From assembly GCA_027031495.1 (NCBI GenBank), contig JALVQA010000006.1, forward strand, positions 81,535 to 145,534: a DNA stretch of 64,000 nucleotides. Direction: 5' to 3'. The notes under the pieces were generated by a model. It did not search any database and was not told where the DNA came from. It was given only the letters and a program-made list of their open reading frames with translations. Below are positions 30,239 to 57,575 of this stretch, one piece after another; within the stretch, counting starts at the first letter, position 1; every line of letters starts with the position of its first letter. Both the position numbers and the translations under genes were made by a program. The DNA comes from Candidatus Moraniibacteriota bacterium (GTDB lineage Bacteria; Patescibacteriota; Minisyncoccia; Moranbacterales; GCA-2747515).

Positions 30239-30361
30239 ATTGTGCGACGTGTTGTGTATTTTTTGAAGTCGCGTGAAAGCGACTAATAAGCAACATATAC
30301 TGCCAAGATATTTTGGCTGGTTTTTTAATTTCCTGTCTGTAGTATAGCATACTTCCACCTT

Positions 30362-31267
30362 TTACGCAACATCAGTTGCGCGGTCGTAGGCCTTGTGGAC
30401 GTCGTCGTTCTGGATGTTGTAGTAGACCTGTGACGACGCCGGAGATGAGTGACCGAGGAGTTGCTGGAGATACGGCTGGTACATCTGCGCCGAGGCGAGG
30501 CGCTGGGCGAAGGCGTGACGCATAGAGTGTGGCGTCTTCCCTGTTATGCCAACGGCGCGACAGCGCGCTCGGAATATGCGCTCTACTTGCCGCGTTGTGA
30601 GGCGGCCGGTTCCGCGCAGTCCGACAAACAGCGCGCGCTCGCTCTTTTTGTGCAGTGTAGCGAGTATCGGCAACCAGCCGCGCAGAACACGCTCCGTTTC
30701 CGGCGTGAACGGAATGCTCCGGTATCCTGCTGCGTCGCGGCGTTTGCGTGTGATTGCCAGCACTTCCCTGCGGTCCAGGTCCACATCGCCTACATTGAGT
30801 GCGACAAGTTCAGAGACGCGCATACCGGTGTCGTACAGGAGCGTGAGGAGCGCCTCGTCACGAATGTCGGCAGTCGTCTCACGCGTGAATGTGCCACGCA
30901 GCAGTTGCCATTCATTGGTCGTCAGCGGCTTGTGGTGGCGTGCTCGGATGCGACCGCGAATTGGGATGGCATCGTGGCGCATCTTGAGTTGCAGTCCGTG
31001 ATGATCTGCCAGTACGCGCTCGCAGAACTTCCAGAGCTGTCGGAGAGCGATGAGGTGGAGATTGGCGGTTGTCTCTGACTTCCCCTCCCTGATGAGCTTC
31101 TGCGAGTACGGCAAGATGTGGTCCATCACGGTTACCTCCTCAATGGCAGTGTCACTCGCATAGCATGCGAATTGGCGGCAGATGTTTGTATAGATGGTCA
31201 GCGTGCGCTGGGTGTAGCGGTGAACACCCCACGCAAAGAATTGGTCTACTGCTTCGTGTATGGTCAT
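30362..31267 (-). CDS. int: Tyrosine recombinase/phage integrase (start moved to internal MTIHEAV; upstream hairpin overlaps the longer ORF)
   Basis: C-terminal catalytic motifs HSMRHAFAQRLA and LLGHSSPASSQVY (R..H..R..Y); N-terminal SAM-like core-binding domain. Confidence 0.9.
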   Translation of the reverse strand: MTIHEAVDQFFAWGVHRYTQRTLTIYTNICRQFACYASDTAIEEVTVMDHILPYSQKLIREGKSETTANLHLIALRQLWKFCERVLADHHGLQLKMRHDAIPIRGRIRARHHKPLTTNEWQLLRGTFTRETTADIRDEALLTLLYDTGMRVSELVALNVGDVDLDRREVLAITRKRRDAAGYRSIPFTPETERVLRGWLPILATLHKKSERALFVGLRGTGRLTTRQVERIFRARCRAVGITGKTPHSMRHAFAQRLASAQMYQPYLQQLLGHSSPASSQVYYNIQNDDVHKAYDRATDVA

Positions 31268-31298
31268 ACACGTAGTGTTATAGCGAATTATTGCACAT

Positions 31299-31329
31299 AA
31301 AAAAACCAACGGGGGTCTAGTCCCGTTGG
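31299..31329 (-). terminator. Intrinsic terminator (minus strand) CCAACGGG-loop-CCCGTTGG + T7 ending the phage minus-strand operon before int
   Basis: 8-bp stem followed on minus strand by TTTTTTT. Confidence 0.6.
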
Positions 31330-31594
31330 CATTTATAGTATAGCATATTCTCTACAGCCGCGCATTCCGGCGCGGCAGCGTATCGCTGCATTGTGCGAAA
31401 ATATACCATACCTCCCTATGCCGGTGAACTAGACCACGCGCTTTAGCGCTTCACCGTAGTTACTTTTGGTAACAGCGTAATGTACACCAAGAGTCCAATT
31501 TTGTCAACCAAAAACACCGGCGATGTGCCGGTGTTCAGTGTATAGCGAATGTGTGAGGGTACCGAAAGTGTGATTGGAATATCACATTTTCAGT

Positions 31595-31816
31595 TTACTC
31601 CTCCTTGTTTTTTTCGTCAACTTTTCGCCAACGCTTTCGCGCGCCCTTTCTTCCAGCAGCAATTACCTGTTCACGATCTACCGGTGATACGACGTGGCGA
31701 CGGTATGCCATTGCCTGTGCCGGAGTGATGTGTCCGGCACAAGCGTACTTTTCTATGATTTGAAGTTTCTCGGCGTCAGAGCGCGCGTCTTTCAGTGCTT
31801 CTTTGATGCTTTTCAT
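31595..31816 (-). CDS. Small basic protein directly upstream of int (excisionase-like by position; hypothetical)
   Basis: 73 aa, basic C-terminus; position typical of xis. Confidence 0.3.
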   Translation of the reverse strand: MKSIKEALKDARSDAEKLQIIEKYACAGHITPAQAMAYRRHVVSPVDREQVIAAGRKGARKRWRKVDEKNKEE

Positions 31817-32548: not shown

Positions 32549-32854
32549 CTAGGTCTTTACCACCAGCGCAAGTAATGCGGCAATCACACCGGTGATCACG
32601 ATCCACATGATGCGCTTGAGAGAACGCTCAGTCTCTTTTGACGCGTAGCGATCATCCGCATTGCGGATGAAGGTGGAGATATCGTCCAGCTTCTCGCTGA
32701 TGCGTTCTATATCTTTCTTTATATCTTGTATTGATAGTTCTGTTTTGCGCATAAAATTGGCCGTTTCTTTCGACGGGGACGACTGATTCCGGAAGCCCTG
32801 CGTGATCGCCGCAACAATGTCACTGCGTAAATTTTCTCGCTCTTCCCTGTTCAT
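32549..32854 (-). CDS. Phage small protein with C-terminal TM anchor
   Basis: 101 aa; C-terminal IMWIVITGVIAALLALVV. Confidence 0.4.
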   Translation of the reverse strand: MNREERENLRSDIVAAITQGFRNQSSPSKETANFMRKTELSIQDIKKDIERISEKLDDISTFIRNADDRYASKETERSLKRIMWIVITGVIAALLALVVKT

Positions 32855-32878
32855 GGTTTTTCCGGTGTCTTGAATGAA

Positions 32879-33592
32879 TCATAAAAGCCCTGCTTTTCTA
32901 TAAAAAATATAAGATAGATTTTTCACTTCTCGCATAGTTAGTGCGCGGTCATATATTCTAGCCACAGAAATTCTTCCGGAAAACCCGCCAGCATCATTTC
33001 CCATCACATTATATGGGTGTCCATCCGGTGTTATGTTGCCTGTTTGAGGGTTTTCATCGAAAAGATCACCCCAATGAAACAGTTTCCAACCCATGATAGG
33101 ATCATACGTTACAGCGGCGAACACCCACTCTCCGGCGGTAACTTCAGGTCCAGTAACGACATTATTCCAGCCGACGCCCTGACTCAATCTTATCGTATAT
33201 TGATTGTTTTGTACCACATCACCAAATGTCATAATGAGTTGGCTTTCTCCTTGAAAGCAGAAAATTCTTTGAAAATGATCAAATGGACCATCCGTATTGA
33301 AAAGCGCCAATAACGTGAATGAACTATTTCCATCGAATATTCCGATTCTTTCAAAATTTACTGCATCATCCATACCATCAAAATCTAGCGCCAACAATGA
33401 GCCATACCCATTCACCGCTGTTGCACCAACAATTGTGCCATTATTATTTTTGCCGGATACATCTATGACAGTATTTGATGCGATTTGTGCGAAATCAAAG
33501 TCCAAAACAAGCCCATCTCTGATGTCGTAGAGATTCATTGGGAGCGCGCGTTTTTCTTTCAGCGCGACTGGTTTTAGCTTTACTTTTTCCAT
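32879..33592 (-). CDS. Phage protein with concanavalin-A/LamG-like lectin domain (receptor-binding candidate)
   Basis: DGMDDAVNFERIGIFDGNSSFTLLALF and trailing W/G-rich beta-sandwich pattern typical of LamG. Confidence 0.45.
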   Translation of the reverse strand: MEKVKLKPVALKEKRALPMNLYDIRDGLVLDFDFAQIASNTVIDVSGKNNNGTIVGATAVNGYGSLLALDFDGMDDAVNFERIGIFDGNSSFTLLALFNTDGPFDHFQRIFCFQGESQLIMTFGDVVQNNQYTIRLSQGVGWNNVVTGPEVTAGEWVFAAVTYDPIMGWKLFHWGDLFDENPQTGNITPDGHPYNVMGNDAGGFSGRISVARIYDRALTMREVKNLSYIFYRKAGLL

Positions 33593-33925
33593 TTACTTTA
33601 CATCCATTTTATGCACTTTTATTGTCACGGATGTTCCTGTTCCCGAAATATTATCGATTCTGAAATTGACATTTTGGGATTTGAAAATATCTAGTGTAAA
33701 CAGTTTACTTTTTGCGCCGGATACGATAACCGACTCACACTCGTTGTATCCATCGCCTGTCGCATTTAAAAGAAGCGGCGTAATTGTTGCTTTTGGTTCG
33801 GCTCCGCTCAAAATGACCTCGACAGGCACGCGTTTATATCCGATTCCTACACCTGTAGAAACCGATGGATTTGATGTGTCATCCGTTGTGACGTTTTCAC
33901 GAATTGTGATTGATTTTATACTCAT
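33593..33925 (-). CDS. Phage hypothetical structural protein
   Basis: 110 aa beta-rich. Confidence 0.4.
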   Translation of the reverse strand: MSIKSITIRENVTTDDTSNPSVSTGVGIGYKRVPVEVILSGAEPKATITPLLLNATGDGYNECESVIVSGAKSKLFTLDIFKSQNVNFRIDNISGTGTSVTIKVHKMDVK

Positions 33926-33933
33926 ATGTTTTT

Positions 33934-35016
33934 TTATCTGTTAACTTTTTTTGTGACATATTGCGCCAGGGTCTGCGCGACCGGCAGCACGGCAGCAGCA
34001 ATGGCGACGTTCTGGTCGGTCGCGAGGTATGAGAGGTACGCGACGGTGGCTGCCATGGCGAAGTTCACAAGCGTCCAGCCTGCACGCCTCCAGTCTTTCG
34101 CGGTGATGAGTGCAACCGCTTGCTCCGGCGTGATGCCCTGCTCTTTCTGTGTGCGCTGCATGTGCTTGAGTTTCGCCGTGAGCGATGCAATTTCGTCGGA
34201 GAGAGAACGGTTCAGTTTTTGGCACTCTGACAGCGAGATGTGCAGTGACTGCGTCTCGTCTTTCTTCTGCGCGTTTTTGAGTGCACGCTCCAGTGCGTCG
34301 GCTTGCTCGCTTACCTTGTCGCGTTCACGCGTGACGACAGCAATCTTGCCGTTGAGTGCGTCAATTTTCTCCGTGAGCATCCGTGCGATGTTTTTCTGCT
34401 CTCCCTCTGAGAGTTTTGCGCCGAAGTCTACGCCCAGCAGATGCTTGAGCGTTGTGCGCAATTCTGTGATGAGTGGTTGTGTCATATCTTTTTTGTTACT
34501 TTTTACATTTTCATCATCTTCTTGGACCACAATCATCCGTCCCCACTTCCCGTTGCTGCCGCGCCCGGTATATGTGTGGATAACGGTCCCGGATTTCACG
34601 CAGTACACAGGCGCGTCATAGTCCGCGTTCCCGGCGCCTTTGCCGTTTTCGTCCAATCCCGGATGGAAACACGGCGCTTTTGCGCGTGCAAATGGGATGC
34701 GGTTAGAATTGGATGCGTAGTCCCAATACTGCAGCCAGCCCAGTCCCAGGTGGTCAAAGCCCTTCCCAAGTGCCTTTGGGTACTTTCGCGGATCCGCGAA
34801 CCACTCCTGCACTTTCTGCTTGCTCCAGCCAATGCAGTAGAAGTTCCAGTTTTTCTGTCCGTTTGCGAGCGTCGGGAAGCGCCTCGGATGATCCCGATGC
34901 GTGTGAGCATACCACTGACCATTCGCCGTGCCGTTGGTGCCGATTTTCTGCCCCACCAAAACCCGGTCCCCGACCTTGACGTATACGTGATTCAGATGTG
35001 CGTAGCGGGTGTACAT
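33934..35016 (-). CDS. Phage protein with M23/LytM-like peptidase motifs (HxH then HxxxD, apparently permuted), coiled coil and C-terminal TM
   Basis: N-term YAHLNHVYVKVGDRVLVGQKIGTNGTANG..YAHTH; later CFHPGLDENGKGAG..APVYCVKSGTVIH; coiled coil; C-terminal TM TLVNFAMAATVAYLSYL. Confidence 0.4.
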   Translation of the reverse strand: MYTRYAHLNHVYVKVGDRVLVGQKIGTNGTANGQWYAHTHRDHPRRFPTLANGQKNWNFYCIGWSKQKVQEWFADPRKYPKALGKGFDHLGLGWLQYWDYASNSNRIPFARAKAPCFHPGLDENGKGAGNADYDAPVYCVKSGTVIHTYTGRGSNGKWGRMIVVQEDDENVKSNKKDMTQPLITELRTTLKHLLGVDFGAKLSEGEQKNIARMLTEKIDALNGKIAVVTRERDKVSEQADALERALKNAQKKDETQSLHISLSECQKLNRSLSDEIASLTAKLKHMQRTQKEQGITPEQAVALITAKDWRRAGWTLVNFAMAATVAYLSYLATDQNVAIAAAVLPVAQTLAQYVTKKVNR

Positions 35017-35029: not shown

Positions 35030-35587
35030 CTATTGCTTTGAGATTAGCATTTTGAGATTTTTATAACCGATTGAGCCGGATGCGTTTGAATTTTTGGCGG
35101 TCAGTTTGATAGTTACGGTCTTTGCTGTTGTAAAATCTGCTGTTGCATAAAGAACATCATTTGTGGCAGACCATTGTCTATCACTTGCTTTCCGCGTCCA
35201 GTCCACACTGACACCGTCAATGTACAGGTACACATATGCATCAAACGCATACCCAAGATTACTAATCACCTGTGCGTCCAAACGCGCTTGAACTATCAAC
35301 TTGTCCCCGGCGTTTACTGACACAGTAGTGGTCATATCGGTGAGGTCGTGCTCCGATGTATCGCCAGTTACTGTTGTGCTCGTATTTGTTGCGTATTCTT
35401 TTACGAACTGCATTACGCCCATAGTACCAAGTTTATGCGTCCCGTCGGGGTTGTGTTCGGCTTTGAATGTGTCCCAGTTTTCGTTCACCTTCGCGCTCTC
35501 TATCTTTGTTTTTGGAACGAATGAATTGATCGTCATATCTTTCGCAATAAAAAAGAGCCCGACAGGTGTGTCGTAACACACCATCAT
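35030..35587 (-). CDS. Phage hypothetical structural protein
   Basis: 185 aa, beta-rich. Confidence 0.4.
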   Translation of the reverse strand: MMVCYDTPVGLFFIAKDMTINSFVPKTKIESAKVNENWDTFKAEHNPDGTHKLGTMGVMQFVKEYATNTSTTVTGDTSEHDLTDMTTTVSVNAGDKLIVQARLDAQVISNLGYAFDAYVYLYIDGVSVDWTRKASDRQWSATNDVLYATADFTTAKTVTIKLTAKNSNASGSIGYKNLKMLISKQ

Positions 35588-35629
35588 CGGACTCGTAAGT
35601 CGTCTTATTTGTTTTCAGTATATCACACT

Positions 35630-36028
35630 CTAGTCCGCTTTGTCTATAAAAATACGGTAGGTGTAGTCTATGATCACATCCGGGTCCCCGGCGCCGTAGT
35701 CGTCATAGAAAAATATCAGATAGATGTTCGTTGCGTCACAATTAAGCGCCCAGGAGATCTCCGTTCCGATAACGAAGTCCCACGTCGGCATCGGGAAGTA
35801 ATATGTATCAAAGTAGTTGCCGTTGCGGTCCTTTGCGGCCGCCTGAAAGATTGGTCGGTAGCCGAGATTGTGCGCGACCGTCACTGTGTGATTGGCGCCG
35901 TCCACCGGCACAGTCAGAGAACCGCTGCCGGTAAGTGTGCGCTTGAGGTTGGGGTAGCGGTTGTCTGTGACAGTATAGCGGCCGTCTGCGGTGCGTGCGT
36001 CGTGTGATGCGAGAGATGCTCTGAACAT
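35630..36028 (-). CDS. Phage tail-fibre-like module protein (one copy of HNLGY repeat module)
   Basis: Shares ~100-aa module with next ORF (..TVAHNLGYRPIF..). Confidence 0.4.
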   Translation of the reverse strand: MFRASLASHDARTADGRYTVTDNRYPNLKRTLTGSGSLTVPVDGANHTVTVAHNLGYRPIFQAAAKDRNGNYFDTYYFPMPTWDFVIGTEISWALNCDATNIYLIFFYDDYGAGDPDVIIDYTYRIFIDKAD

Positions 36029-36029
36029 A

Positions 36030-36755
36030 TCATTTGAAAATTACATAGTAGACGATGTCGCCGGGATTCAGGTAGAAGTGTGCTGCATTTGCGTCGTAGC
36101 CGATCCACTTGAAGTACTGCAAATATGATGTTCCGGACTCCTGAATGAATGCGAGTGCCTGCGAGACATAGCCGAGGTTGTGTGTAATGCTGGATGCTGT
36201 CGTGGATCCCTTCATATGCACATTGGCGCAGCCGTATTTGGAGTGCATGCACAGCTGCTCATCAGTGCAGATGAGCACATCATAGCCCTGCTTGCTGATT
36301 TTGATGCCGTAATCATCGTTGCCGCCGGTCTGCGTCGTCGCTGACGCCACAGCAGATGTGAATGCACTGAAGTCGTCCACAAATTGGTACACGGTGAAGT
36401 ATACCGTGTCGCCGTTGTTGCTGAAACCCTGATCAAAAAACTCATCCACGACAATCTCCAGATAGTTCGGATAGACTTCCACAGTGAGCGGCAGCACATT
36501 GTCCGAAAACATGAACGACTTGTTCGTGCCGATTGTCGTGGAGCCGTTGTAGATGACGAAGCACGGCGCAAAATACCCGAGGTTGTGCGTCACGCGGATG
36601 CGGTTGTCGGCTGCGCCGGACGCCGGGATGGTCGTGGAGACGTGCGTGACTGAGAATACCTTCAGCGACGGCATATCTGATGACACGACGAGCTCCTGCG
36701 GCGCCGCCGTAAATACATCATATCCTTTTTGACTGACTTTGATGCCATATCCCAT
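36030..36755 (-). CDS. Phage tail-fibre-like protein with two tandem HNLGY modules
   Basis: YGIKVSQKGYDV...RVTHNLGYFAP and YGIKISKQGYDV...SITHNLGYVSQ. Confidence 0.45.
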   Translation of the reverse strand: MGYGIKVSQKGYDVFTAAPQELVVSSDMPSLKVFSVTHVSTTIPASGAADNRIRVTHNLGYFAPCFVIYNGSTTIGTNKSFMFSDNVLPLTVEVYPNYLEIVVDEFFDQGFSNNGDTVYFTVYQFVDDFSAFTSAVASATTQTGGNDDYGIKISKQGYDVLICTDEQLCMHSKYGCANVHMKGSTTASSITHNLGYVSQALAFIQESGTSYLQYFKWIGYDANAAHFYLNPGDIVYYVIFK

Positions 36756-36757
36756 AC

Positions 36758-37099
36758 TTATGTGAGGTTACCGATGACGACGCGGTTCGTGGTCCCGTCG
36801 TGGACCACGATGCGCTTGTTCGCCGCGTCCAAGATGAGTGTAGAATCGCCGATGGTGATCTTGTTTGCGTTCCCATCTATCACGATACCGTTGACGGTGA
36901 TTTTGTTGTTTGCGCCATCTATGACGGTAGAGCCGTTCGCGAGTTCTATCTTTGTGCCGGTTACTTTCAGGTCATAGTTGGACGGATCCGATCCGCTAAC
37001 CATTTCAAACTTGCCATTGACAATCTTCAAATAGCCCGGGTGGCTGCTGCCGCCGAGCGTGAGCGAGTACGCGGATTGGTTCATCTTAACAAACGGCAT
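36758..37099 (-). CDS. Phage beta-helix repeat protein (tail needle/fibre-like)
   Basis: Repeats NGSTVIDGANNKITVNGIVIDGNANKITIGDSTLILDAANKRIVVHDGTTNRVVIG. Confidence 0.4.
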   Translation of the reverse strand: MPFVKMNQSAYSLTLGGSSHPGYLKIVNGKFEMVSGSDPSNYDLKVTGTKIELANGSTVIDGANNKITVNGIVIDGNANKITIGDSTLILDAANKRIVVHDGTTNRVVIGNLT

Positions 37100-37103
37100 A
37101 GTG

Positions 37104-38300
37104 CTATGTGGTTACGGTTGTTGTTATCGGCGCTCCGGCTGCCATAAAGAGCTCCTGGTTGCGCTTCACCGTCGCGAGGTTGTGCGCCACACTCGGCAAG
37201 CGGTCCGAGACCTCTACGGTGATGTGCGTTCCGCGGTACGTGATGCGCTTCACAACAAGCACGCTATCAAACACCTCGTTCGGATGCGCATCCCAGTAAC
37301 TCTCGTCCCAGTTGTCCTCATCCCACCGCGTGCCGTCATTGCTTCCAGCACGGTCCTTGATGCGGATAGAGTCACCCGGCTTAATACTCTCTATATCATA
37401 ACCGCGACTACTGAATGCATCGTCCAACACATCAAACCGCACCTCCATATCCACAGACGGCGAGAGGTGCGAGTTCGCGATGTAGTTGATACTTGTGGTG
37501 GACGTGAGGCGTCCGTCTATGACGACGCGCTGGCGCTTGCCGTATGTGTCAATGGACGCCTGCGACTTGCTGCGCGCCACAATCTGCTCTTCCCCGTCCG
37601 GCGTGCCGCCAATGATGAGCACATCGTTGATGACATTATCCATCTTGGATGTGAATTCCAGGTTTTGAATCTCACGGCCCAGCGTGAGGATGTGGTCCGG
37701 CGTCGTGCGCACTTGCCGGATGTGCGCCTTGCGTGTGGCGTCCACATACCAGTACCAATCGTTCGGCAGCCGCTCCATAATCTTCTCTACCGCATCCAGC
37801 ACATACGCACCGTTCACAGAGAGATCTGCGCTCACGCCGCTGGTCTCTATCGTCCCGGCGTTGATGTTGCCGCCGGAGAGTGTGATGAGGTGCGAGAATA
37901 GCTCTGTCGGGTCGTCACCGGTTGCCATAAGGCCCGTTGTGCCATCGGAGAGCTCCACGAGCCGCACGGCCCACTCCTGCACATAGCCGACGCATTCTAT
38001 ACTCACTTGTGACTTCTCCGTGCCAATCACAGAGTTCACGCGCATAATGCGGCCACTGTAGACCTTCGTGCCGCCGTTTTTCTCAGTCACGACGATATGG
38101 TTTCCCGGGATGAGGTCGTTGCAGGTGTACACTTTGGACCGGTGGCGGTTTATGGTGAGGCGCAGCGCGCCGAGCCCACCGTTGACATCATACGCGAACA
38201 CCGGGTGATGATCCGCCACATCCGACAATACACCAACGACATTCCAGCTGAAGTCGTAGATCTTGTACTCGTACTGCTTTGTTTTCGTAATCGTCGTCAT
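37104..38300 (-). CDS. Phage tail protein (Tal/baseplate-hub-like by position)
   Basis: 398 aa, second gene after TMP. Confidence 0.4.
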   Translation of the reverse strand: MTTITKTKQYEYKIYDFSWNVVGVLSDVADHHPVFAYDVNGGLGALRLTINRHRSKVYTCNDLIPGNHIVVTEKNGGTKVYSGRIMRVNSVIGTEKSQVSIECVGYVQEWAVRLVELSDGTTGLMATGDDPTELFSHLITLSGGNINAGTIETSGVSADLSVNGAYVLDAVEKIMERLPNDWYWYVDATRKAHIRQVRTTPDHILTLGREIQNLEFTSKMDNVINDVLIIGGTPDGEEQIVARSKSQASIDTYGKRQRVVIDGRLTSTTSINYIANSHLSPSVDMEVRFDVLDDAFSSRGYDIESIKPGDSIRIKDRAGSNDGTRWDEDNWDESYWDAHPNEVFDSVLVVKRITYRGTHITVEVSDRLPSVAHNLATVKRNQELFMAAGAPITTTVTT

Positions 38301-39040: not shown

Positions 39041-39076
39041 TTTTTTTGCTAGTAATTATTTGCTAGTAAAACAGGA

Positions 39077-40831: not shown

Positions 40832-40997
40832 TTTTCCTCTTCTTCCTTTCTTACTTTCTCAACCTCCTCAATATACACTTCTGCAGTTGTTATAAATTCC
40901 CGCGGCGCAGTATCGTATTCCTGACTACTCCATCCCATCGCCTTACATATCAGCACCTTTCGGACAATAGGATCTGGTGATTCTACCCGACAACCTC

Positions 40998-41369: not shown

Positions 41370-41520
41370 AGTTTTTTCTTACCTCCAATTAAAAAAGACC
41401 TCGCACGCGGAGGTCGTAACTTCCGCGCATGAGGTCCGTAGACGCTTGTCTTTGTCTCCAGTATACCACACTAATCAATTCTGTGCTATCCTGGAGTATA
41501 ATCACATAACTGGAGGTGAT

Positions 41521-42165: not shown

Positions 42166-42170
42166 AATAG

Positions 42171-42242
42171 AAAAACACCGCCAGTGGCGCACAGGAGAGG
42201 AGGTGAGAAAAACTCCCATGCGCAGCAGGCGGTGTTTTTGTG
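42171..42242. terminator. Large bidirectional terminator hairpin (ACACCGCC...GGCGGTGT + T5) between moron and major tail gene
   Basis: 8-bp outer stem, inner pairing, A/T tracts both sides. Confidence 0.6.
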
Positions 42243-46447: not shown

Positions 46448-46462
46448 AGTTTTATGCGTTAA

Positions 46463-47431: not shown

Positions 47432-47493
47432 CGGGTCGCCGTGGCGAACCTGTACAGAGTCTCGTAGACTTTCACTTTGTTACTTTCAGTATA

Positions 47494-49692: not shown

Positions 49693-49756
49693 GCAGAGCT
49701 CGTGAGCTCATGAGGTCTGGCGGCAAGCGCTAGTCACGACTCGCCGCCACATCTCC

Positions 49757-50083
49757 TTACCTCTTTTTGTCTACCTTCACTATACCACGCTCCACAGCGT
49801 GCGGCAATATCACACCGCCCGGTGTCTTTTTCTGCGTGTGCCGGATGCGCGGCTTCGTGCCGGAGCAGAACATAAACTCCAGCAGTGCATCGTCACCGTC
49901 AATGTCTACCTTGATGCACCCGCCCATCTCGTCAACAATCTCCTGCGCTTCCTGCAGTGACTGCATAGAGATGGTGCCGGTGTCGGCGTGCTTTGCGTGA
50001 AATTCCTGCGCGATCTGCTGGATGCGTTTCGCGGCTTCCTCGCGCTGCTTTTTGGTAGCGCGCAGTGCATTTTTTCGTGTCAT
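49757..50083 (-). CDS. Phage hypothetical protein
   Basis: 108 aa between portal and TerL. Confidence 0.35.
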   Translation of the reverse strand: MTRKNALRATKKQREEAAKRIQQIAQEFHAKHADTGTISMQSLQEAQEIVDEMGGCIKVDIDGDDALLEFMFCSGTKPRIRHTQKKTPGGVILPHAVERGIVKVDKKR

Positions 50084-50295
50084 TGTTTTTTCGTTAGTGA
50101 ATGAATCATAAGGGGACGACCTTCGCTGTCGTAGACCTTGCGCGCATTCAGACCGATGCGCAATACAACAGCGTGCTCAATTGCGATGGAGACCGGTGAC
50201 CGGCAGTGCGGACAGCGTGTCTCCAGTGCCGTCGCTTCCGTTTCCTTGAATTTCGCGACCAATGCGTTGCATCGTGGACAGTTTGCAAGAATCAT
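50080..50295 (-). CDS. Small zinc-ribbon protein (CxxC...CxxC)
   Basis: CPRCNALV...CPHCRSPV. Confidence 0.4.
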   Translation of the reverse strand: MILANCPRCNALVAKFKETEATALETRCPHCRSPVSIAIEHAVVLRIGLNARKVYDSEGRPLMIHSLTKKQ

Positions 50296-50312
50296 AGTGT
50301 TTTTGCTATTTT

Positions 50313-51593
50313 TTACATCAATCTTATGCGTGGCTCAGCCGGCTGGACCCAACTCTTGCGCCCGGCGAGTGCATAGCGAATCGCATCCATTGCGTGGTTG
50401 TGCGCGTCCACCGGCGTGTTCGTTGGCTCTTTGTTACGGTCCAGCGCCCACTTGTACTCCTGCAGCTCATCCGCGATGTCGTCAGAGTCCTCTGTGTAGT
50501 ACACCTCGTGGTCGTGGATATAATCAATGCCGGTCCGGATGCTGTCATTCCCCTTCGGCGCAGCGCTAATGTCAAAGTTGTACTCCGCAATCTCCGCAAT
50601 GCTTTTCGGCTCCGATGCGTCTGCGAATATGAGACCATTCACACCGAGCTCCTCCATCCTCTTGGCGATGCGTGCGTTGGTGAGGCCCGTCTCGTAGAGC
50701 AGTTGCCGGACATAGATACGTTCGTTGTGACGCATCACTTCCACCAGCGCAGTCGGATCGTTAGAGAAGCCAAAGTCAAGTCCGTAGAACCGCTCATACT
50801 CCAGCGCCTCGTACTCAGCGACACTGATTGTCTGCCAGTCTGTGAACACGCGGCCGCGTGCACCCTCCGACACAAGCCCCTTGATCATAGAGTAGTAGTG
50901 GCTCGGGTTGCGCGTCTTGTAGCGCTCAAAGTTGTCAATAGTCTTGTCTGCGATGTTCTGGCGATTGCTCTCGTACGTTCCGTGGATGTAGATCGTGTCG
51001 CGCTTCTCGCTGTCCTTCAGGTCCGCCTTGTAGAAGCCATCAACACCGGACTTCGTAAGGTTGAACCAGCGTCTGATAATCCAGTGCTTGCGGTGCGGTG
51101 GGTTCAGAAGCAAGACGATCGTCACATCACCCTTCACTGTACGCAGCGAGTCGTCCAGTTGGATGAAGTCCTCCTCCGCGACCTCGTCCGCCTCTTCTAT
51201 GATCACACAATTGAAGTTCGCCAACGACTTGAGTTTGCTCTTTTGATCATTTGTACTGCGCCGGAAACCCTTCCCAACAATCGTGTTGCCACCGCACTGC
51301 ATCTTCATCTGATTTTCCGTCACGCTCACGCGCGCGGCAATCTCATCATCCAATTCATCGCGCCGGTCCACAGCTTCCTGCCAGATACTATGTCGGACAT
51401 CATTCAGCACAAACCGCATAATCGCGCAGCGGAAGTATGTTGCCGAGAGCAGATTGATGAGCGCATATTGACTGGCTGCGTGCGATCGCCCGGCGGACCG
51501 TCCGCCCATCATGATGATGTACCGCGGCCGCTTGCCGGATGCAGCATTCCCGACAAAGAGTGGTTTGTAGATTTTGTTCACATCAAACATCAC
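50313..51593 (-). CDS. terL: Terminase large subunit
   Basis: Walker A-like IIMMGGRSAGRSHAAS, Walker B-like FNCVIIEEADE, RNaseH-like nuclease region ADASEPKSI...DAHNHAMDAIRYAL. Confidence 0.85.
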   Translation of the reverse strand: MMFDVNKIYKPLFVGNAASGKRPRYIIMMGGRSAGRSHAASQYALINLLSATYFRCAIMRFVLNDVRHSIWQEAVDRRDELDDEIAARVSVTENQMKMQCGGNTIVGKGFRRSTNDQKSKLKSLANFNCVIIEEADEVAEEDFIQLDDSLRTVKGDVTIVLLLNPPHRKHWIIRRWFNLTKSGVDGFYKADLKDSEKRDTIYIHGTYESNRQNIADKTIDNFERYKTRNPSHYYSMIKGLVSEGARGRVFTDWQTISVAEYEALEYERFYGLDFGFSNDPTALVEVMRHNERIYVRQLLYETGLTNARIAKRMEELGVNGLIFADASEPKSIAEIAEYNFDISAAPKGNDSIRTGIDYIHDHEVYYTEDSDDIADELQEYKWALDRNKEPTNTPVDAHNHAMDAIRYALAGRKSWVQPAEPRIRLM

Positions 51594-52069
51594 GAGTAAT
51601 CCTTGAATGTTACCTGAATACCATTGTTGATATTGACCGATACACTAGGCGTATCACTCTTGCGTCCCTCCAGTCCGTGTAATTCTCCCAATGCTTTGTG
51701 ATATTGTCTGCGTACTCTGTAGTCATCATAGTAATCAACAACTTTCCCGTCCCAAACAACCGGAGACTTCGCAGAAAGACCATCTCTGAGCTTTTCCACA
51801 TACTTATCTATTCCAAGATCATAGATTGCGAGAATAGCCGAAATGTTAACTTTTGTTAACTGACGGGCTCCGAGAACACGAGCGCTGCGCTCTGTTACTT
51901 CCGGGTGAAGTTTCTTATATGCTTTTGTTGCGTTCATCCCATTTTTCATCCACTCAGCGATAAAAGCAGCAAGAGCAGCGTCCCCACCGCACTCCTCCAA
52001 GACAGCAATTTTATCCGCCTGACAACGAATGACTTTGCGTTTCTTTGTTGTTTTCTTGTTTTTTGCCAT
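51590..52069 (-). CDS. terS: Terminase small subunit (P27-like)
   Basis: GMNATKAYKKLHP motif; overlaps terL start by 4 nt. Confidence 0.7.
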   Translation of the reverse strand: MAKNKKTTKKRKVIRCQADKIAVLEECGGDAALAAFIAEWMKNGMNATKAYKKLHPEVTERSARVLGARQLTKVNISAILAIYDLGIDKYVEKLRDGLSAKSPVVWDGKVVDYYDDYRVRRQYHKALGELHGLEGRKSDTPSVSVNINNGIQVTFKDYS

Positions 52070-52259
52070 TGTTAGTCAGTGTATCCAATACTCTTATCCA
52101 CTGTTTTTCAGTGTTTGTAATTTCTCCTTTCCTTCTTATACCTCATCCGTGCCTGCTTGTTGAATAATTTGCGCGTCCACTTATGTCGCCCGCTCCGACC
52201 GCTCCGGCACCTACTGCAGCCACATCCGGTGTGTATTCTCTGTTGTATTTTGCTCAAGA

Positions 52260-52529
52260 TCATAGATTGTATTCTTTGCCTTTATAAAAAGCAATTTTTG
52301 TATGGTTCTCGCTTTCACAGAAAACGCCAAAAAACTTGCAAAAAATGTTTTGTTTCCAATTTTTGCAAATAAACACATCAACGATGTTTTCTTCACCTGT
52401 CTTAATGTCAAAGCGACTATCAACAATGCGTGATGTATCCCATAAGTCATCAACCACATGCACCCTATCAGCTCTTTTTCTTTTGTGCTCCAGCAGATTG
52501 CCGCATTTTGTGCAATATAGTTTTGTCAT
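52260..52529 (-). CDS. Phage hypothetical small protein (CxxC)
   Basis: 89 aa. Confidence 0.3.
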   Translation of the reverse strand: MTKLYCTKCGNLLEHKRKRADRVHVVDDLWDTSRIVDSRFDIKTGEENIVDVFICKNWKQNIFCKFFGVFCESENHTKIAFYKGKEYNL

Positions 52530-52822
52530 ATTTTTTCAATTAAATTCTTATACAACTCCTTCAATACCTCTTCGCATTGGTCCTCCGGCGAACGTGTAAG
52601 ATCAAAGGTGAACAACTCTATTGGGATATCGCTGTAGTTGTCACATACATAGAATTCACCCAAGCCGTTCATCTCTATAATCTTTCCGCATTTCTCAGAA
52701 TCAAATTTTGACTGCATCATCAACAAAACTTCTGATAGAGACAGAGGTTTGTTATTTCTGTCCATCACCTCATTTCTCATTGTGCGGAGCTGTTTTGTTA
52801 ATTCTTTTACATCGTTATTCAT
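52526..52822 (-). CDS. Phage hypothetical protein
   Basis: 98 aa acidic. Confidence 0.3.
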   Translation of the reverse strand: MNNDVKELTKQLRTMRNEVMDRNNKPLSLSEVLLMMQSKFDSEKCGKIIEMNGLGEFYVCDNYSDIPIELFTFDLTRSPEDQCEEVLKELYKNLIEKI

Positions 52823-52930
52823 ATGTTTGCTTACTGAAAAATATCACAAATAATACTCCACAACATCAACAAAGATGATACAAGCCACAGAATGACGCCG
52901 ATTAAAAGTAATGTATATTTATCCATAGGT

Positions 52931-53350
52931 TTACTTCTCCATTAAATTTTCAACATCAACATACCGCACGCGTTTCTCATTTGTGCGACCTGATGTTCTG
53001 TACCCAAACACCAGTACGCGCACCTTGCCACTTTTCGTTGGCTTGCCGAGTACTACGCACGGCATCGTGTATTCGCGACAGTTTCCACCCTGACATTGAC
53101 GACAGCGCACGACATGTGTTGCATCTTCAGCTGTGGCATTCCTTAGATACGTAGTCTCTATCGGTGTTGTTTCCACAACAACGTGTCCGTCAGACAGTAT
53201 TTTCTTTTTTGCCTCCTCGTATGTGTCCCACGTGCCGATTGTGGATACACGACCCTCTATCTCCAATCCTGCTGATACATACCCGTGAGCCGAGAATGTG
53301 CCTCCGGCATTTTTGAATATTACGTAGTATAGCTTTTCCTTTTTGTTCAT
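52931..53350 (-). CDS. Phage hypothetical protein (Cys-cluster CRQCQGGNC)
   Basis: 139 aa. Confidence 0.35.
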   Translation of the reverse strand: MNKKEKLYYVIFKNAGGTFSAHGYVSAGLEIEGRVSTIGTWDTYEEAKKKILSDGHVVVETTPIETTYLRNATAEDATHVVRCRQCQGGNCREYTMPCVVLGKPTKSGKVRVLVFGYRTSGRTNEKRVRYVDVENLMEK

Positions 53351-53356
53351 AGTTTT

Positions 53357-53839
53357 TCACTTTACGATTTTATAGATCACATCCTCATGCTCTCGCAACC
53401 ACGTCGCTTCCAGCAGCTTGCGCTTCAGTTTCCACACCGCTGTCTCATATCCCTTCACCTCCACGAGCTCCTTGCGGCCGTCGGCGTATGTCACGAGGAA
53501 GTCCAGGACATGCGTGCAAATTTTCTGCCCATTCACGACGAGAGGGATGCGGACCTGGCGCTGGACGTCTATGACACACCGTTTCGGATCCGAGGCCCGG
53601 CGGAGCATATCTAACTCCGCCGCAACCTCTGCCTCCCGGCGTGAGTCATATGTCACGCCGTTGTACACGGTCCGCCGTGCATTGTACTTGCTCCGGCGGC
53701 GACCACCTCTGCGACTTGTGACGATGATAGTCATACTAGAATGGCACTTTACTTGATTTCGCTTTTTGTAGATTGTAGAGAAGGTCATAGTTATCCGCGT
53801 CCTGCTGTGAGATCCACATGATGTAGTCCTCTGGCACAT
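53357..53839 (-). CDS. DUF1064 phage protein
   Basis: SKYNARRTVYNGVTYDSRREAEVAAELDML..Q..IPL...DFLVTYADGRKELVEVKG matches DUF1064 pattern. Confidence 0.6.
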   Translation of the reverse strand: MCQRTTSCGSHSRTRITMTFSTIYKKRNQVKCHSSMTIIVTSRRGGRRRSKYNARRTVYNGVTYDSRREAEVAAELDMLRRASDPKRCVIDVQRQVRIPLVVNGQKICTHVLDFLVTYADGRKELVEVKGYETAVWKLKRKLLEATWLREHEDVIYKIVK

Positions 53840-54464
53840 CCTCCAGTCGCTCGCCTTTGTATTTTCCGAACGGCATCCGACGAATGACAGCCGGCTCCTG
53901 CGTAATTTTGATCATCTCATCAATCACCGGTGCGACCTCCTCGTGCTGTCCGCGCATCATATTCACGAGCGCGCCGAATACTTCACGCAATACGATCGTG
54001 TCGTAGAGCGCGTCGTGCGCAGCCGTGCCTTCCGGTACTTCTACATCGTAGAGTCCGAGCGCATAGCGCAAATACTGCAGTCCGTAACTTTGCCACTTCT
54101 CATTCTCATCAATCGCGCGCGCAACCTTCATCGTGCAGATCTGCTGCTTCGCAGGAATCACCACGCCGTGATTCGCGAGCACTGCCGCGTCAAACGCGAT
54201 ATTGTGCGCCGCAAACACCGCGCCTTCAGAGATGAGTGCACGCACCGTCTCTATGGATTGCGACGCGTCAAATGACTGCAACTTCTCCACCTTCATCGGC
54301 GTGATGTGATGCACCGCCATTGCCTCAACGGTAATTGGCGTGTCCGGTTTGAAGTACTCGTTCAGAATCACGTGTGTCTCTCCGACGACAGAGATTTGTA
54401 CGATCTCCGCGACTTTCGTATCGCTCGCGGTCGTCTCGGTGTCAAAAAATACTACTTTCTTCAT
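53736..54464 (-). CDS. DnaQ-like (DEDD) 3'-5' exonuclease; start set to MKKVVFFDTETT
   Basis: Exo I FFDTETT, Exo II/III segments (AHNIAFDAAVL, DALYDTIVLREVF). Confidence 0.8.
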   Translation of the reverse strand: MKKVVFFDTETTASDTKVAEIVQISVVGETHVILNEYFKPDTPITVEAMAVHHITPMKVEKLQSFDASQSIETVRALISEGAVFAAHNIAFDAAVLANHGVVIPAKQQICTMKVARAIDENEKWQSYGLQYLRYALGLYDVEVPEGTAAHDALYDTIVLREVFGALVNMMRGQHEEVAPVIDEMIKITQEPAVIRRMPFGKYKGERLEDVPEDYIMWISQQDADNYDLLYNLQKAKSSKVPF

Positions 54465-54474
54465 AGGTTTGGAT

Positions 54475-54789
54475 TTAGTTCGTGAGTGAATTAACGCGCG
54501 CCGCCTCGTGCTCCTTCGCGCGCTTGCGGCGCAGTCGCAACTGCCGGAGTGCATCGTATAGGATCTTGTCACGATTGTAATTCGGGATCTTGTCCTCGCG
54601 GAACACTTGGTGCTTGTGCCCATGCACATCCACATAGCGATAGTATCCGTGCTCCACGCAGTACCGGTCAAATGTTCTGTCGCCAAGCATAGACTCAAAC
54701 ATCCGCACCTTGTGGATACCCTCTTTCGTGCTCAGTAGTCCGATCGGCGACGCATCGGTTTGTCTTTGTGTTTTGTGGAATCCTTGCAT
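54475..54789 (-). CDS. Phage hypothetical basic protein
   Basis: 104 aa between replication protein and exonuclease. Confidence 0.35.
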   Translation of the reverse strand: MQGFHKTQRQTDASPIGLLSTKEGIHKVRMFESMLGDRTFDRYCVEHGYYRYVDVHGHKHQVFREDKIPNYNRDKILYDALRQLRLRRKRAKEHEAARVNSLTN

Positions 54790-54793
54790 ATGA

Positions 54794-55636
54794 TTATTTC
54801 TTTTTGGAATTTAATGCGAATTTCACGACAGTCGCGAGCGAATACTCTGTGATGTACCTCGCGTGAACAATGCCGTCTACCGCTCTCGCGAGCTGATCGT
54901 CGGTGAAGCCGGTCCGCACAATCTCGCTCGCGACTTTCAGATTCGGCTTCAGCCACAACTGCCACTGCGCTGCTGTGCGCAGGTCTGGCGCATGACCGTA
55001 TGTGATAAGCTCCGTCAGAAACTTCGCGACGACGCGGATGTGTTCCTGATCAGAATCGGCGAGCCAATCACGAAATGCAGTTGCATCCATCTGCTCGTGA
55101 CGTGCGCACATTTGGCGATTACGCATCGGCTTACCAGAACAATAATCAAATGCGCAAACGGGAGGGCGCGACGCATCGCGTTGCGCAACCCTTCTTTGTG
55201 TATCCTTCTTATGTGCATCCTTCCAGTCCACCTCGTGTACCCGGCTTTTGTCGTCAGATGGACCCGGGTCGGTACGTGAGGTGGACTCGGCTCGGGGTTC
55301 ATCTGGTGTACCCGGCTCACGCTTCCAGACACTCACGTCCAGGAGTGTATACACGTTGTTTTTTTGCCGCCGCGTGCGCTCGTCACGCTCGCGTGTGATC
55401 GCGATAATATTATGCGCCGCCAGCTCTTTCAGCGCCTTGATTGCCGTCGTGCGGCTCATTCCCTTAGCGAGTCGTTCAATGCTCGGCCAGGACTTCTGAC
55501 CGCGTCCTGCGTGACGGCACAGCGCCATATAGACGCGGTCAGAATAGACACTCAAAATATCCTGGTATTCGTCCACGTAGACGTCATCCACGCGGAACAT
55601 CCGTCGGGATCTAGCGTCGCGAATGAGAATCTTCAT
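54794..55636 (-). CDS. Phage replication protein with N-terminal winged-HTH (replisome organiser/DnaD-like)
   Basis: LSVYSDRVYMALCRHAGRGQKSWPSIERLAKGMSRTTAIKALKELAAHNIIAI. Confidence 0.5.
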   Translation of the reverse strand: MKILIRDARSRRMFRVDDVYVDEYQDILSVYSDRVYMALCRHAGRGQKSWPSIERLAKGMSRTTAIKALKELAAHNIIAITRERDERTRRQKNNVYTLLDVSVWKREPGTPDEPRAESTSRTDPGPSDDKSRVHEVDWKDAHKKDTQRRVAQRDASRPPVCAFDYCSGKPMRNRQMCARHEQMDATAFRDWLADSDQEHIRVVAKFLTELITYGHAPDLRTAAQWQLWLKPNLKVASEIVRTGFTDDQLARAVDGIVHARYITEYSLATVVKFALNSKKK

Positions 55637-55808
55637 AGCGATAATTCTTAATGTTGTGTTTTTTCAGATCGTCACAGAATTTTTTACTTTCTGAGCGCCA
55701 CTTTTCTTCATAGCGCATATCCTCCGCGTACTCGTACGCAACCGAGAATATAAGAGCAAGGAGCGCAGAGCCAATGATAAATAGGGTCATAATTTTACTG
55801 GTTATCAT
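55611..55808 (-). CDS. Small single-TM phage protein
   Basis: 65 aa, LFIIGSALLALIFSVAY. Confidence 0.3.
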   Translation of the reverse strand: MITSKIMTLFIIGSALLALIFSVAYEYAEDMRYEEKWRSESKKFCDDLKKHNIKNYRYEDSHSRR

Positions 55809-56742
55809 TTACTACAGGGATACAGTCACACTTCGCACCTTTGTGCGATGCACACAGGGCCGTGTGCTGCATCTGCTCCTTTGGACTTTCATCCGGTACC
55901 GACTCCTGCTGTTCGTTCTGTGCCGGACCTTGCGCCGGAGCTGCAGGTGGAGTAGCTGGCGCATTTGCCGCCTCTTTCGCGCGCTTGCGGCGGATGCGCT
56001 CCAGGTCCTGATACACCTTCCGCAGCACATTGATATTCGCCGACGCCAGCGGCATGCCAATCTGCGACTCTATCACACCCTGTGTTGTTCCGAGCTCATT
56101 CATGAGAGAATAGAGACGTTCAAGCGCTTCTTTTGTGACCTTCGGTTGCGTCACTTGGGCGTTTCCGACAGTCTCCGGTGTTGCGTCTGTGTCCTCGTCA
56201 CCGGTCATGATGCCAAATGCGTTACAGAATGCATATCGCTTCGCGAATGTCAAAGCCGCCGCAAACTTTTGTGGGCCACTCATGTATGCCTTCGGGTCAA
56301 TCGGGACACGGAATGACGTCTCCTCACTATGTCCGCCTTCGTGCGTTACGATGACAGTCGCCGTCACACTCGTGTCATCCTGTTGCGTTTTGATTGTGTA
56401 TGAGAGACCATTGCGTGCGATATATTCGCGCACCTGCTCAACGATTGCATCAATAGATGCGTACTTGTATCTCACGGTACGACGGTCTTTCTCCAAGACC
56501 TCTTTTGTTTTGCGAATTGTCGGCAATTCAGATTGACATTTTGCCATAGCGGCAATAAATGCCTTCTTTGCCTCCCTTTGCTCGTAGTCTTTTTGGAGCT
56601 CAAACAGTCGCTCCAAAGTTTCTACGTCAACCTTCTTCTCTATCGCTTGAGCGATGATATTTAGAGTTGTTTGTGGTTGAATTCCCACATCCCTCTCCTC
56701 TTTTGTCGCATCTTGTGCGACTATCTCTTGAGTCGTACTCAT
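55795..56742 (-). CDS. ERF-family single-strand annealing protein
   Basis: KFAAALTFAKRYAFCNAFGIMTGDEDTD ERF signature; Q/P-rich C-terminus. Confidence 0.8.
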   Translation of the reverse strand: MSTTQEIVAQDATKEERDVGIQPQTTLNIIAQAIEKKVDVETLERLFELQKDYEQREAKKAFIAAMAKCQSELPTIRKTKEVLEKDRRTVRYKYASIDAIVEQVREYIARNGLSYTIKTQQDDTSVTATVIVTHEGGHSEETSFRVPIDPKAYMSGPQKFAAALTFAKRYAFCNAFGIMTGDEDTDATPETVGNAQVTQPKVTKEALERLYSLMNELGTTQGVIESQIGMPLASANINVLRKVYQDLERIRRKRAKEAANAPATPPAAPAQGPAQNEQQESVPDESPKEQMQHTALCASHKGAKCDCIPVVNDNQ

Positions 56743-56807
56743 AGTTTTGTTGTCCGATTGCCGTCGCCGCTAGTCACGAGCGACAGCGGCAATCGGAGAC
56801 TAGCTAA

Positions 56808-57293
56808 TTACTCCACCGCGCTGATAATTCTCGCACATGTCCACGGCCGCCATCCAAAGCGATCGTAGATTTTGCGCGCATACGCGATGTTTTGACGCGC
56901 GTCCAACAGTTTCTGCGCTGTCAGTCCCGCGTACTTCACCCGACCCGGTAAGAGTCGGATTTGGAACACTCCATACGAGGAGTATGCCGTGTGCGTGTCT
57001 CCCACACGCGACGGATCCAGGCGACTTTCGCAGTGTGCAATGCGCACTGCCGTGTCCGGGTCCTCCGGGAATGTCTCCCGGATGAGACGCTCAATCGCAT
57101 CTCGGTCAAGTTGTCTTTCGTCATCACATACCACATCAATGAGTCCGCACGGGTCCGGTGCCGTGTATTCTGCTTCCGGCACCTCTGCCGCGACCGCGAC
57201 GTCAGTGTGCAGGGTGATGACCTCACGCGCATCTGTATTCAGCGCGTTTGCTGCTGTAAAAATGACAGCAGCGGAAATGAGAATATATCTCAT
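56808..57293 (-). CDS. Secreted lytic transglycosylase (SLT domain), endolysin candidate
   Basis: Signal peptide MRYILISAAVIFTAANA; VRIAHCESRLDPSRVGDTHTAYSSYGVFQI SLT catalytic-Glu motif. Confidence 0.8.
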   Translation of the reverse strand: MRYILISAAVIFTAANALNTDAREVITLHTDVAVAAEVPEAEYTAPDPCGLIDVVCDDERQLDRDAIERLIRETFPEDPDTAVRIAHCESRLDPSRVGDTHTAYSSYGVFQIRLLPGRVKYAGLTAQKLLDARQNIAYARKIYDRFGWRPWTCARIISAVE

Positions 57294-57575
57294 ATCTGAG
57301 CATTTACAGCGGATACGCGTCCGCGTCAGCGCTCACCCTAGAAAATAAAAAAACTGCCGTTTGGCAGTATTGTTGTTGTTATTTATACAGAAAGGTCGGA
57401 CAACTCAAATTGTGCGACATAATATAAATATCAAAACAGCACAATTTCAGAAGGATAAGAACGTATTGTTCCTCTATTTATTTTTTTGCAAGAGAAAACT
57501 TTTTTACAATTTCTTGATAGATCCACTTTCATTCATTACGCCACACAATCAAAAAGTTTGTGTGTCCCTTGTTTC

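Follow-up and report, generated by a model that had tools for sequence, protein, structure and literature searches.

Why does a tailed phage lie integrated beside a CRISPR array in a bacterium of the candidate phyla radiation (CPR), and what did it recognize there? We addressed this question in a stretch of 64 kilobases (kb) of contig JALVQA010000006.1 from a Candidatus Moraniibacteriota bacterium, which is identical to ENA scaffold ERZ23491057 scaffold_31 and is referred to in full length as the window. It carries a siphovirus-type prophage with a body of 27,160 bp (30249–57408), or 27,170 bp with one copy of the repeat that bounds it (30249–57418). The junctions of this prophage rebuild a host site with the architecture of dif, and the phage attachment site has the same architecture. 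We conclude that the element is probably a temperate siphovirus-type phage that used its own Xer-like recombinase to integrate in the host dif, at the replication terminus.

Boundaries of the prophage

The decamer ATTGTGCGAC occurs exactly twice in the window, at 30239–30248 and at 57409–57418, and a first-pass annotation had proposed that these copies are the identity shared by the left and right attachment sites, attL and attR. Taken alone, the repeat is weak evidence (two or more copies arose in 3 of 100 shuffles). The assignment is supported by the exact search together with contigs that hold the empty site, the attP of a relative and breaks in an assembly. A perfect 16/16 palindrome, TTTATATTATGTCGCA-N12-TGCGACATAATATAAA, is restored when the two flanks are joined through a single repeat copy, and the longest inverted repeat of the whole 29–58-kb stretch is the one that pairs the two junctions.

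One degenerate pattern able to match attL, attR, attP or attB was run against JGI metagenomes (retrieved loci are cited by L numbers). The 34 nucleotides (nt) obtained by joining the window flanks, ATGTCGCATAAGATACATTGTGCGACATAATATA, are present uninterrupted and identical in L019 and L020, the surrounding context of which is otherwise unrelated; these loci provide the empty attB. In L018, the two arms of the site show concerted changes (ACGTCGCA...TGCGACGT) around an unchanged spacer.

The attP form was observed directly in a relative. L029 encodes an integrase (P0004) that is 95% identical to that of the window, and its integrase stop codon is followed by ATAATGTCGCACAA|TTTGAG|TTGTCCGACC (a joint that can also be written ...GTCGCACAA|TTTGAG|TTGTCCGACC...), a terminator and the start of a gene resembling the soluble lytic transglycosylase (SLT) gene at the other end of the prophage. 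This arrangement is colinear with the attP built from the two window ends, and 28 nt are identical across the joint. L030, which has the same integrase as L029, leads instead to TGCATC|TTATACGACATTAT and then to the host flank that is also present in L021 and L022. The relative's attP and attL therefore diverge directly after GTCGCACAAT (the window repeat in reverse complement). The attP junction predicted for the window is AGGTCGGACAACTCAAATTGTGCGACGTGTTG; the exact attP 34-mer is absent from IMG/VR.

The Logan assembly of SRR13622960, in which all contigs are 100% identical to the window, breaks at the same place: a host contig ends at 30268 and a phage contig of 26,825 bp begins at 30239. 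The overlap of 30 nt, which equals k − 1 for a k of 31 that we take Logan to use, is the mark of a node in the assembly graph that has two neighbours on its left, with different bases at 30238. The equivalent base of the site is also where the Logan contig of L024, a different phage of this clade, stops. The prophage and its boundaries are almost certainly real, and the attP form of the 95%-identical relative, together with the assembly branches at the junction, indicates that the intact prophage is probably active.

A dif-like target site

Each repeat copy had been described as lying inside an imperfect inverted repeat. On the right this is exactly GTCGGACA-N8-TGTGCGAC, as described; on the left the sequence reads TGTCGCA-N12-TGCGAC(G) and not TGTCGCA-N11-TGCGACA. 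What the description missed is that the inverted repeats at the junctions are the two arms of a Xer/dif-type site. The rebuilt host site, ATGTCGCATAA|GATACA|TTGTGCGACAT, consists of two 11-bp inverted arms, which match at 10 of 11 positions, around a 6-bp centre. We compared it with the architecture and sequences of published dif sites (PMC2731167). The site agrees with published proteobacterial dif sites at 19–22 of 28 positions (best, Mesorhizobium loti, 22/28), whereas 20,000 28-mers from the window, scored against the same proteobacterial sites, reached a maximum of 18/28.

The only full dif-like sites in the window are the two junctions. AttL (30223–30250; ATGTCGCATAA|GATACA|TTGTGCGACGT), which holds the first repeat copy, combines the arm and the centre of the host with the shared arm. 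Compared with the rebuilt host site, it has a change at 1 of 28 positions, to a base that is found naturally in L018, and judging from its sequence it probably still works as dif. In attR (57393–57420; AGGTCGGACAA|CTCAAA|TTGTGCGACAT), which holds the second copy, a phage-type arm and a phage-type centre are joined to the host, or shared, arm. A degenerate-palindrome pattern matched once per locus in every genome locus retrieved.

The hairpin formed by the site was also considered as an intrinsic terminator. This was rejected, as the palindrome is not terminator-like, lacking a U tract after the stem, and its asymmetric spacer is conserved. Rfam searches of the window and of the palindrome loci retrieved from GTDB genomes (below) returned nothing at the site. 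We infer that the site functions as dif and consider it likely that the prophage target is the host dif.

The phage recombinase and attP

The gene nearest the left junction encodes a tyrosine recombinase of 301 amino acids (30362–31267, minus strand), the stop codon of which lies 113 bp from the repeat. Pfam identifies a SAM-like N domain and a catalytic domain only; no arm-binding domain was found. The best NCBIfam matches are XerA, XerC and XerD, over the full length (E values of 5e-41 to 3e-37). Close homologues are rare, with only 5 among 5.8 billion proteins, and beyond these five phage homologues the nearest proteins are host XerC (30–39% identity). We regard the integrase as Xer-like, and not as a Xer orthologue.

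AttP, AGGTCGGACAA|CTCAAA|TTGTGCGACGT, lies in the 240-bp gap between the integrase stop codon and the SLT gene. Its arms match at 9 of 11 positions—one is near-perfect and the other degenerate—and its centre shares 2 of 6 positions with the host centre. The phage thus enters a dif-like site through a dif-like attP, as do the integrative mobile elements exploiting Xer (IMEX). IMEX have no recombinase of their own. Because this element carries its own Xer-like recombinase gene beside the site, we do not file it as an IMEX, although it may work like one.

Four other phages of the integrase clade have a complete dif-like site 90–115 bp past the integrase stop codon. Read in the direction of the integrase, the centre beside this gene is TGTATC in the window, L023 and L025, as in the uninterrupted sites of L018–L020, and TGCATC in L021. 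The centre beside the SLT gene is TTTGAG in the window, L029 and L037 and TTAGGG in L027, unlike the integrase-side centres. This pattern across lineages indicates that crossover always takes place at the same arm/centre boundary.

Position relative to the replication terminus

GC skew is +0.122 in the left host flank and −0.031 in the right flank, and its sign is kept for another 4.8 kb beyond the window. When the prophage is deleted in silico, the cumulative GC skew reaches its maximum 65 bp from the junction, and the host genes of the two flanks converge on the site. The same switch from positive to negative skew occurs at the site in L020, and the host flanks of L021 and L023 have the expected skew sign.

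Searching GTDB genomes with the pattern ATTATGTCGCA-N12-TGCGACATAAT gave 10 matches, none of them (0/10) from the host lineage; all of these related palindromes are in other phyla. In Firmicutes (UBA2530 and Sedimentibacter), ATTATGTCGCAAAATA-NN-TATTTTGCGACATAAT lies exactly at the switch from positive to negative skew (L008, 4100–4133; L009, 6277–6310; L010, 6040–6073), and in L008 a Xer-like gene is 1.2 kb from the palindrome. We regard the palindrome in these three loci as a candidate dif site of a single-recombinase system.

A model of integration and its alternatives

We propose that the Xer-like tyrosine recombinase of the phage, alone or with host Xer, would synapse attP and dif. Strands would be exchanged where the shared arm (TTGTGCGAC) meets the centre, and exchange at this position would leave the arm plus one base (ATTGTGCGAC) as the sole identity at both junctions. 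The second strand exchange would probably not be completed, because the centres of attP and dif differ, and the Holliday junction would probably be resolved by replication, as in elements of the VGJ-phi and CTX-phi type, for which the model is a single strand exchange followed by replication (PMC5357621). Integration would regenerate a nearly intact dif at attL (27/28), so the lysogen would keep dimer resolution. On the evidence of the junction sequences, we rate the chances of such a one-exchange mechanism as about even.

Several points weigh against this account. No host xer gene lies within the window, and the integrase scores 129–141 bits where the curated Xer cut-offs are 220–335 (141 versus 220). 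Placement of the terminus depends on around 41 kb of skew, in which the right flank is weak (−0.03). Three loci with sites of the same type have no skew switch (L012, L013 and L015) and one has the opposite switch (L016); as the skew evidence is mixed across loci, the argument for a terminus is good but not closed. The second left neighbour in the Logan graph could be the junction of another lysogen and not attP. Finally, the same junctions would result from a conventional exchange of both strands, with an overlap that falls within the 10-bp identity.

This last route is the alternative that survives best, although we consider it rather unlikely. Exchange of the lambda type would use an overlap of 6–8 bp inside ATTGTGCGAC, and the dif-like arms would not be the binding sites used. 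The 10-mer is indeed the only identity between attP and attB, and tyrosine integrases normally need identical overlaps. However, attB has no inverted core sites flanking a centre inside the 10-mer; attB (10/11) and attP (9/11) are instead symmetric about the 6-bp centre. The identity also stops within one base of the known position of Xer cleavage, which is at the extremities of the spacer (PMC8371274), and wherever both centres can be compared, the one on the integrase side is of the uninterrupted host type and the one on the SLT side is not.

Somewhat less probable still is a true IMEX, in which host Xer integrates the phage at dif and the phage Xer-like protein activates the reaction, sets its direction or resolves phage multimers. 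The attP does mimic dif, and a heterologous centre is a hallmark of IMEX of the VGJ type (PMC5357621). Moreover, a site of this kind is found in 54 viral contigs of IMG/VR that have no tyrosine recombinase open reading frame (ORF) in the fetched DNA, so exploitation of Xer without an integrase seems possible in this sequence space. The clade itself argues otherwise: in 5/5 lineages the integrase is the last gene before the site, at a distance of 90–115 bp, which is classic linkage of int and attP, and the phage-side arm TTGTCCGACC, which diverges from the host arm, has been conserved along with the integrase.

We find it improbable that the element is a standard prophage in an unremarkable intergenic attB, with a small phage integrase and a palindrome that is some other host element (an operator or hairpin) and resembles dif by chance. 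Some of the points listed above would suit such a reading, namely the several same-type sites without a skew switch, an integrase under the Xer family cut-offs and the lack at hand of a Xer gene or FtsK data. Chance resemblance is difficult to reconcile with a 22/28 match to a known dif against a window maximum of 18, the exact 11 + 6 + 11 geometry, the skew switch at the site in the window, in L020 and in L008–L010, the covariation of the arms with a kept spacer in L018 and the single pattern match per retrieved genome locus; the absence of a U tract and of any Rfam match also speaks against another hairpin element. A transposable element with 16-bp terminal inverted repeats (TTTATATTATGTCGCA ... 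TGCGACATAATATAAA), suggested by the perfect inverted repeats just outside both junctions, can be dismissed with near certainty, because the two arms are contiguous host sequence in the empty sites of L019 and L020, the relative's attP contig lacks the outer arms, and there is neither a transposase nor a target duplication.

Gene content of the prophage

Virion, packaging, lysis and replication genes were all identified with Pfam and PHROG, as expected for a prophage of the Caudoviricetes. This coherent set of tailed-phage genes, with a GC content above that of the host flanks, bears out the earlier proposal of a horizontally acquired prophage. The block (30249–57408) has a GC content of 51.6%, compared with 43.5% in the left host flank and 43.3% in the right; it is richer than both flanks and the profile is non-uniform on calculation, but the value is below the ~55% first put forward. 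AT-rich islands lie within it (43.8% GC at 40832–42247 and 37.6% at 52070–52930). The genes from the integrase to the SLT gene form a coherent minus-strand set, as had been described, with a lone exception on the plus strand.

On the minus strand, a strong terminator-like hairpin (31305–31330) directly upstream of the integrase gene parts it from the late and lysis genes. The lysis and accessory region (32549–35016; Pfam and PHROG) encodes a holin-like protein (32549–32854), a Laminin_G_3 protein (32879–33592), a protein of 110 amino acids and an M23 peptidase (33934–35016), in this order. It is followed by a region of tail tip and fibre genes, Dit and tape measure (35030–40831), in which the Dit is of the SPP1 type (38297–39040) and the tape measure protein is encoded at 39077–40831. 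The head and packaging module (42248–52069; Pfam and PHROG) includes head–tail connectors, an S78 protease, the capsid (45362–46447), a portal with a Mu_F domain (47494–49692), TerL (50313–51593) and TerS (51590–52069), as well as a putative major tail protein assigned from position alone. Genes for a DUF1064 resolvase-like protein, an RNase_T exonuclease, an HTH_36 replication initiator and an ERF recombinase make up the early and replication module (52931–56742). The last gene encodes an SLT_3-like secreted protein (56808–57293) and is the first past attP in the circular form of the phage. Between it and attR lies an intrinsic terminator, ACTGCCAAACGGCAGT followed by a T run (57353–57368), and a hairpin resembling this terminator occupies the same place in the relatives L027 and L029.

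The plus-strand gene (41446–42165) is AT-rich and lies inside the tail module. It encodes 239 amino acids with two zinc ribbons and membrane segments, matched no family in Pfam, PHROG or PADLOC and is followed directly by a 32-nt inverted repeat (42166–42244). It could be a moron-like gene that is expressed in the lysogen. Scans of the small ORFs with PHROG, Pfam and PADLOC found no CI/Cro-like or other repressor family, in agreement with the first-pass annotation, and the small ORFs of uncharacterized type matched no defence or anti-CRISPR family in the same databases. IMG/VR held no confirmed relatives of the integrase or of TerL.

Sibling phages carry, near the integrase, a gene of the Acb2/Tad1-hairpin type (a sponge family that counters CBASS and Thoeris) and a Peptidase_M78 (ImmA-like) gene (accessory gene coordinates: L021, 7694–7894 and 8885–9415; L025, 8352–8558); the window phage has neither. 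In the window, TTTTGTCGCATCTTGTGCGAC at 56701–56721, in the 5′ end of the ERF gene, contains both dif-arm motifs with a gap of just 2 nt and may be a chance occurrence. A second prophage-like region of the same metagenome, from another host (L026; ERZ23491057 scaffold_239, 10001–18848), has a portal of the SU10 type and an SLT_3 homologue that is 78% identical to that of the window. It has no dif-like site nearby and is uninformative in this respect; it probably explains the break of the Logan contig at window position 57063.

Host, CRISPR locus and flanks

The host is a bacterium of the Patescibacteria (CPR, Moranbacteria-like), on the basis of features of its 16S ribosomal RNA (rRNA), the relatives of its release factor 2 (RF-2) and its Cas12d. 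The 16S rRNA gene (5276–6863; 1,588 nt), with no 23S gene following, has mismatches at the 515F and EUB338 sites and an insertion of around 90 nt near position 1130–1220, which are CPR-type features. The nearest named relatives of the RF-2 protein are from Candidatus Moranbacteria and Parcubacteria (53–58% identity).

The type V-D locus (cas12d, cas4, cas1, cas2 and the array) extends over 58512–64000 of the window and 2826–6866 of L002 and is presumed to lie directly at the replication terminus. The effector, which had been labelled Cas12, is Cas12d (CasY; 1,346 amino acids, with the N terminus outside the window) and scores 366 bits against NF033951, above the equivalog cut-off of 250. The array (57576–58176, minus strand) has 9 identical 37-nt repeats and 8 spacers. 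Its first repeat is 157 bp from the right repeat copy, in line with the earlier figure of ~160 bp. The att assignment also supports the suggestion that an AT-rich block to the left of the site, an ORF-free host block of 25.6% GC (29560–30222), abutted the distal end of the array before the insertion. Calling that end the trailer end is plausible: a 5′-TG common to two protospacers appears only when the array is read away from cas2, an orientation that puts the prophage at the trailer.

This adjacency had been thought notable and in need of an explanation, either tolerance of an insertion at the trailer end or anti-CRISPR functions of the phage. We find neither necessary: the target is dif-like, none of the 8 spacers of the adjacent array is within 9 mismatches of the prophage, and clade relatives sit at the same kind of site beside unrelated, non-CRISPR genes. 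The unrelated neighbours of these relatives imply that closeness to CRISPR is a property of the terminus region of this host and not of the phage. The proximity looks incidental, and an anti-CRISPR explanation can be set aside as a false lead. Partial spacer-like matches in a repeat search (I5 and I18) were judged to be due to chance.

The array nevertheless records an encounter with the clade, in that the Cas12d array remembers a sibling phage and not the resident one. Spacer 6 (57964–57997) matches 32/34 positions of the sibling phage L021 (6221–6254; integrase 89% identical). The resident homologue of this protospacer, in the tail tip and fibre region (35380–35413), has 12/34 mismatches, so the resident prophage escapes targeting by spacer 6. 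In L029 (1–395) and L030 (1–375), a CRISPR array with a repeat (GTCAGAACAACATCCTTTAAAAGAGAGAAGTAGAAAC) related to that of the window runs from its last repeat directly into the integrase gene, which is likely to reflect an anti-integrase spacer that bridged the assembly. In the other members of the clade, a 5′-TG flanks the anti-integrase protospacer.

The 334-bp gap between cas2 and the array (58177–58511) is associated with a promoter-like sequence (58525–58497) and a terminator-like hairpin (58422–58408), both on the minus strand and around 90 nt apart. It matched no Rfam family. Cas12d systems need a scoutRNA, and the gap could encode a small RNA, possibly this one.

On the other side of the prophage, the left flank is syntenic with L021 (FtsX, GT2 and GT4), the host DNA of which has a GC content of ~53%. 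Short ORF fragments at 29208–29554 of the window are decayed remains of genes that are intact in L021, where PMT_2 and LPG_synthase_TM genes (11569–14471) separate GT4 from the site; beside these fragments, the window retains only the 0.7-kb AT-rich block. In L021, L023 and L025, too, the site is bordered by AT-rich blocks, which hold additional dif half-sites and may have been left behind by previous insertions.

Similar sites in other viral genomes

The pattern ATGTCGCACAA-N6-TTRTNCGAC occurs in the 54 IMG/VR viral contigs referred to above (L031–L084), against about 1 expected by chance by our own estimate from the information content of the pattern. The sites lie much nearer to contig ends than randomly placed sites would. 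In at least 15 of the 54 contigs, the site follows an ORF of ~150 amino acids, upstream of terL, at a distance of 2–41 nt (91–99 nt in two cases), and PHROG identified such ORFs as small terminases in 5 of the 10 tested. Examples are L038 (11168–11193), L040 (6208–6233), L063 (4552–4577) and L047 (523–548). These contigs may represent tailed, IMEX-like phages that depend on host Xer, or phages with Xer-dependent sites for the resolution of multimers.

A broader generalization is tentative, and we hold it to be less likely than its opposite: that exploitation of Xer/dif is common among tailed phages that infect Patescibacteria and perhaps other bacteria, with one clade that captured a Xer-like recombinase and uses a single exchange, and a larger set that has a dif mimic after terS and no recombinase. 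If so, the terS-linked phages would be the first tailed IMEX-like phages, or would borrow host Xer to resolve genome multimers. The conservation of the dif arms could allow such phages to pass between hosts that differ widely in GC content.

Comparison with known systems

The prophage documents an intact, probably active phage genome in CPR bacteria, and its junctions provide a concrete and testable prediction of dif for a CPR lineage. We found no description of dif or Xer for a CPR lineage in the literature that we searched, which is not proof that none exists. An attP centre that cannot pair with the host centre would make this phage a natural system for the study of integration without overlap homology.

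Compared with temperate siphoviruses of the lambda and HK97 type, the phage has the same modular genome, an integrase beside attP and a short block of identity between attL and attR. It differs from them in its simple Xer-type integrase without a detected arm-binding domain, in the position of the integrase as the last gene of a same-strand array and in having no CI/Cro module that we could find. Its target is a dif site, and not a transfer RNA or protein-coding gene, and the centres of its attP and attB differ.

Single-recombinase Xer systems (XerS/difSL, XerH/difH, XerA/dif and XerL/dif) offer a second comparison. The near-palindromic host arms (10/11) are as expected if one recombinase binds both, and the Firmicutes locus L008 is similar in having its Xer-like gene 1.2 kb from a related palindrome at a skew switch. 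In sequence, however, the host arms are nearer to the classical XerCD dif (22/28 for Mesorhizobium loti) than to difSL or difH, and the host recombinase was not seen.

The closest parallel is with IMEX, such as VGJ-phi, CTX-phi and TLC-phi of Vibrio, the gonococcal genetic island (GGI) of Neisseria and LME-1 of Legionella. Like these, the phage targets a chromosomal dif-like site with an attP that mimics dif and has a centre without homology to dif on one side; crossover maps to one arm/centre boundary and would regenerate a usable dif at one junction. As for LME-1 (PMC9765430), the att site of the element reveals a dif that had not been predicted. Known IMEX are filamentous or other non-tailed phages, or islands, that have no recombinase and depend on host XerCD or XerL, and the literature that we searched describes IMEX only in these groups and no tailed phage with its own integrase at dif, which does not prove that there is none. 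The element described here is instead a 27-kb tailed phage of a CPR host with its own Xer-like recombinase gene beside attP, and its palindromic arms suggest a Xer system with a single recombinase. It would thus work like an IMEX but departs from the definition by having a recombinase of its own, and is a variant of Xer/dif exploitation that adds a tailed phage carrying its own Xer-derived recombinase to the small non-tailed phages and islands already known to target dif.

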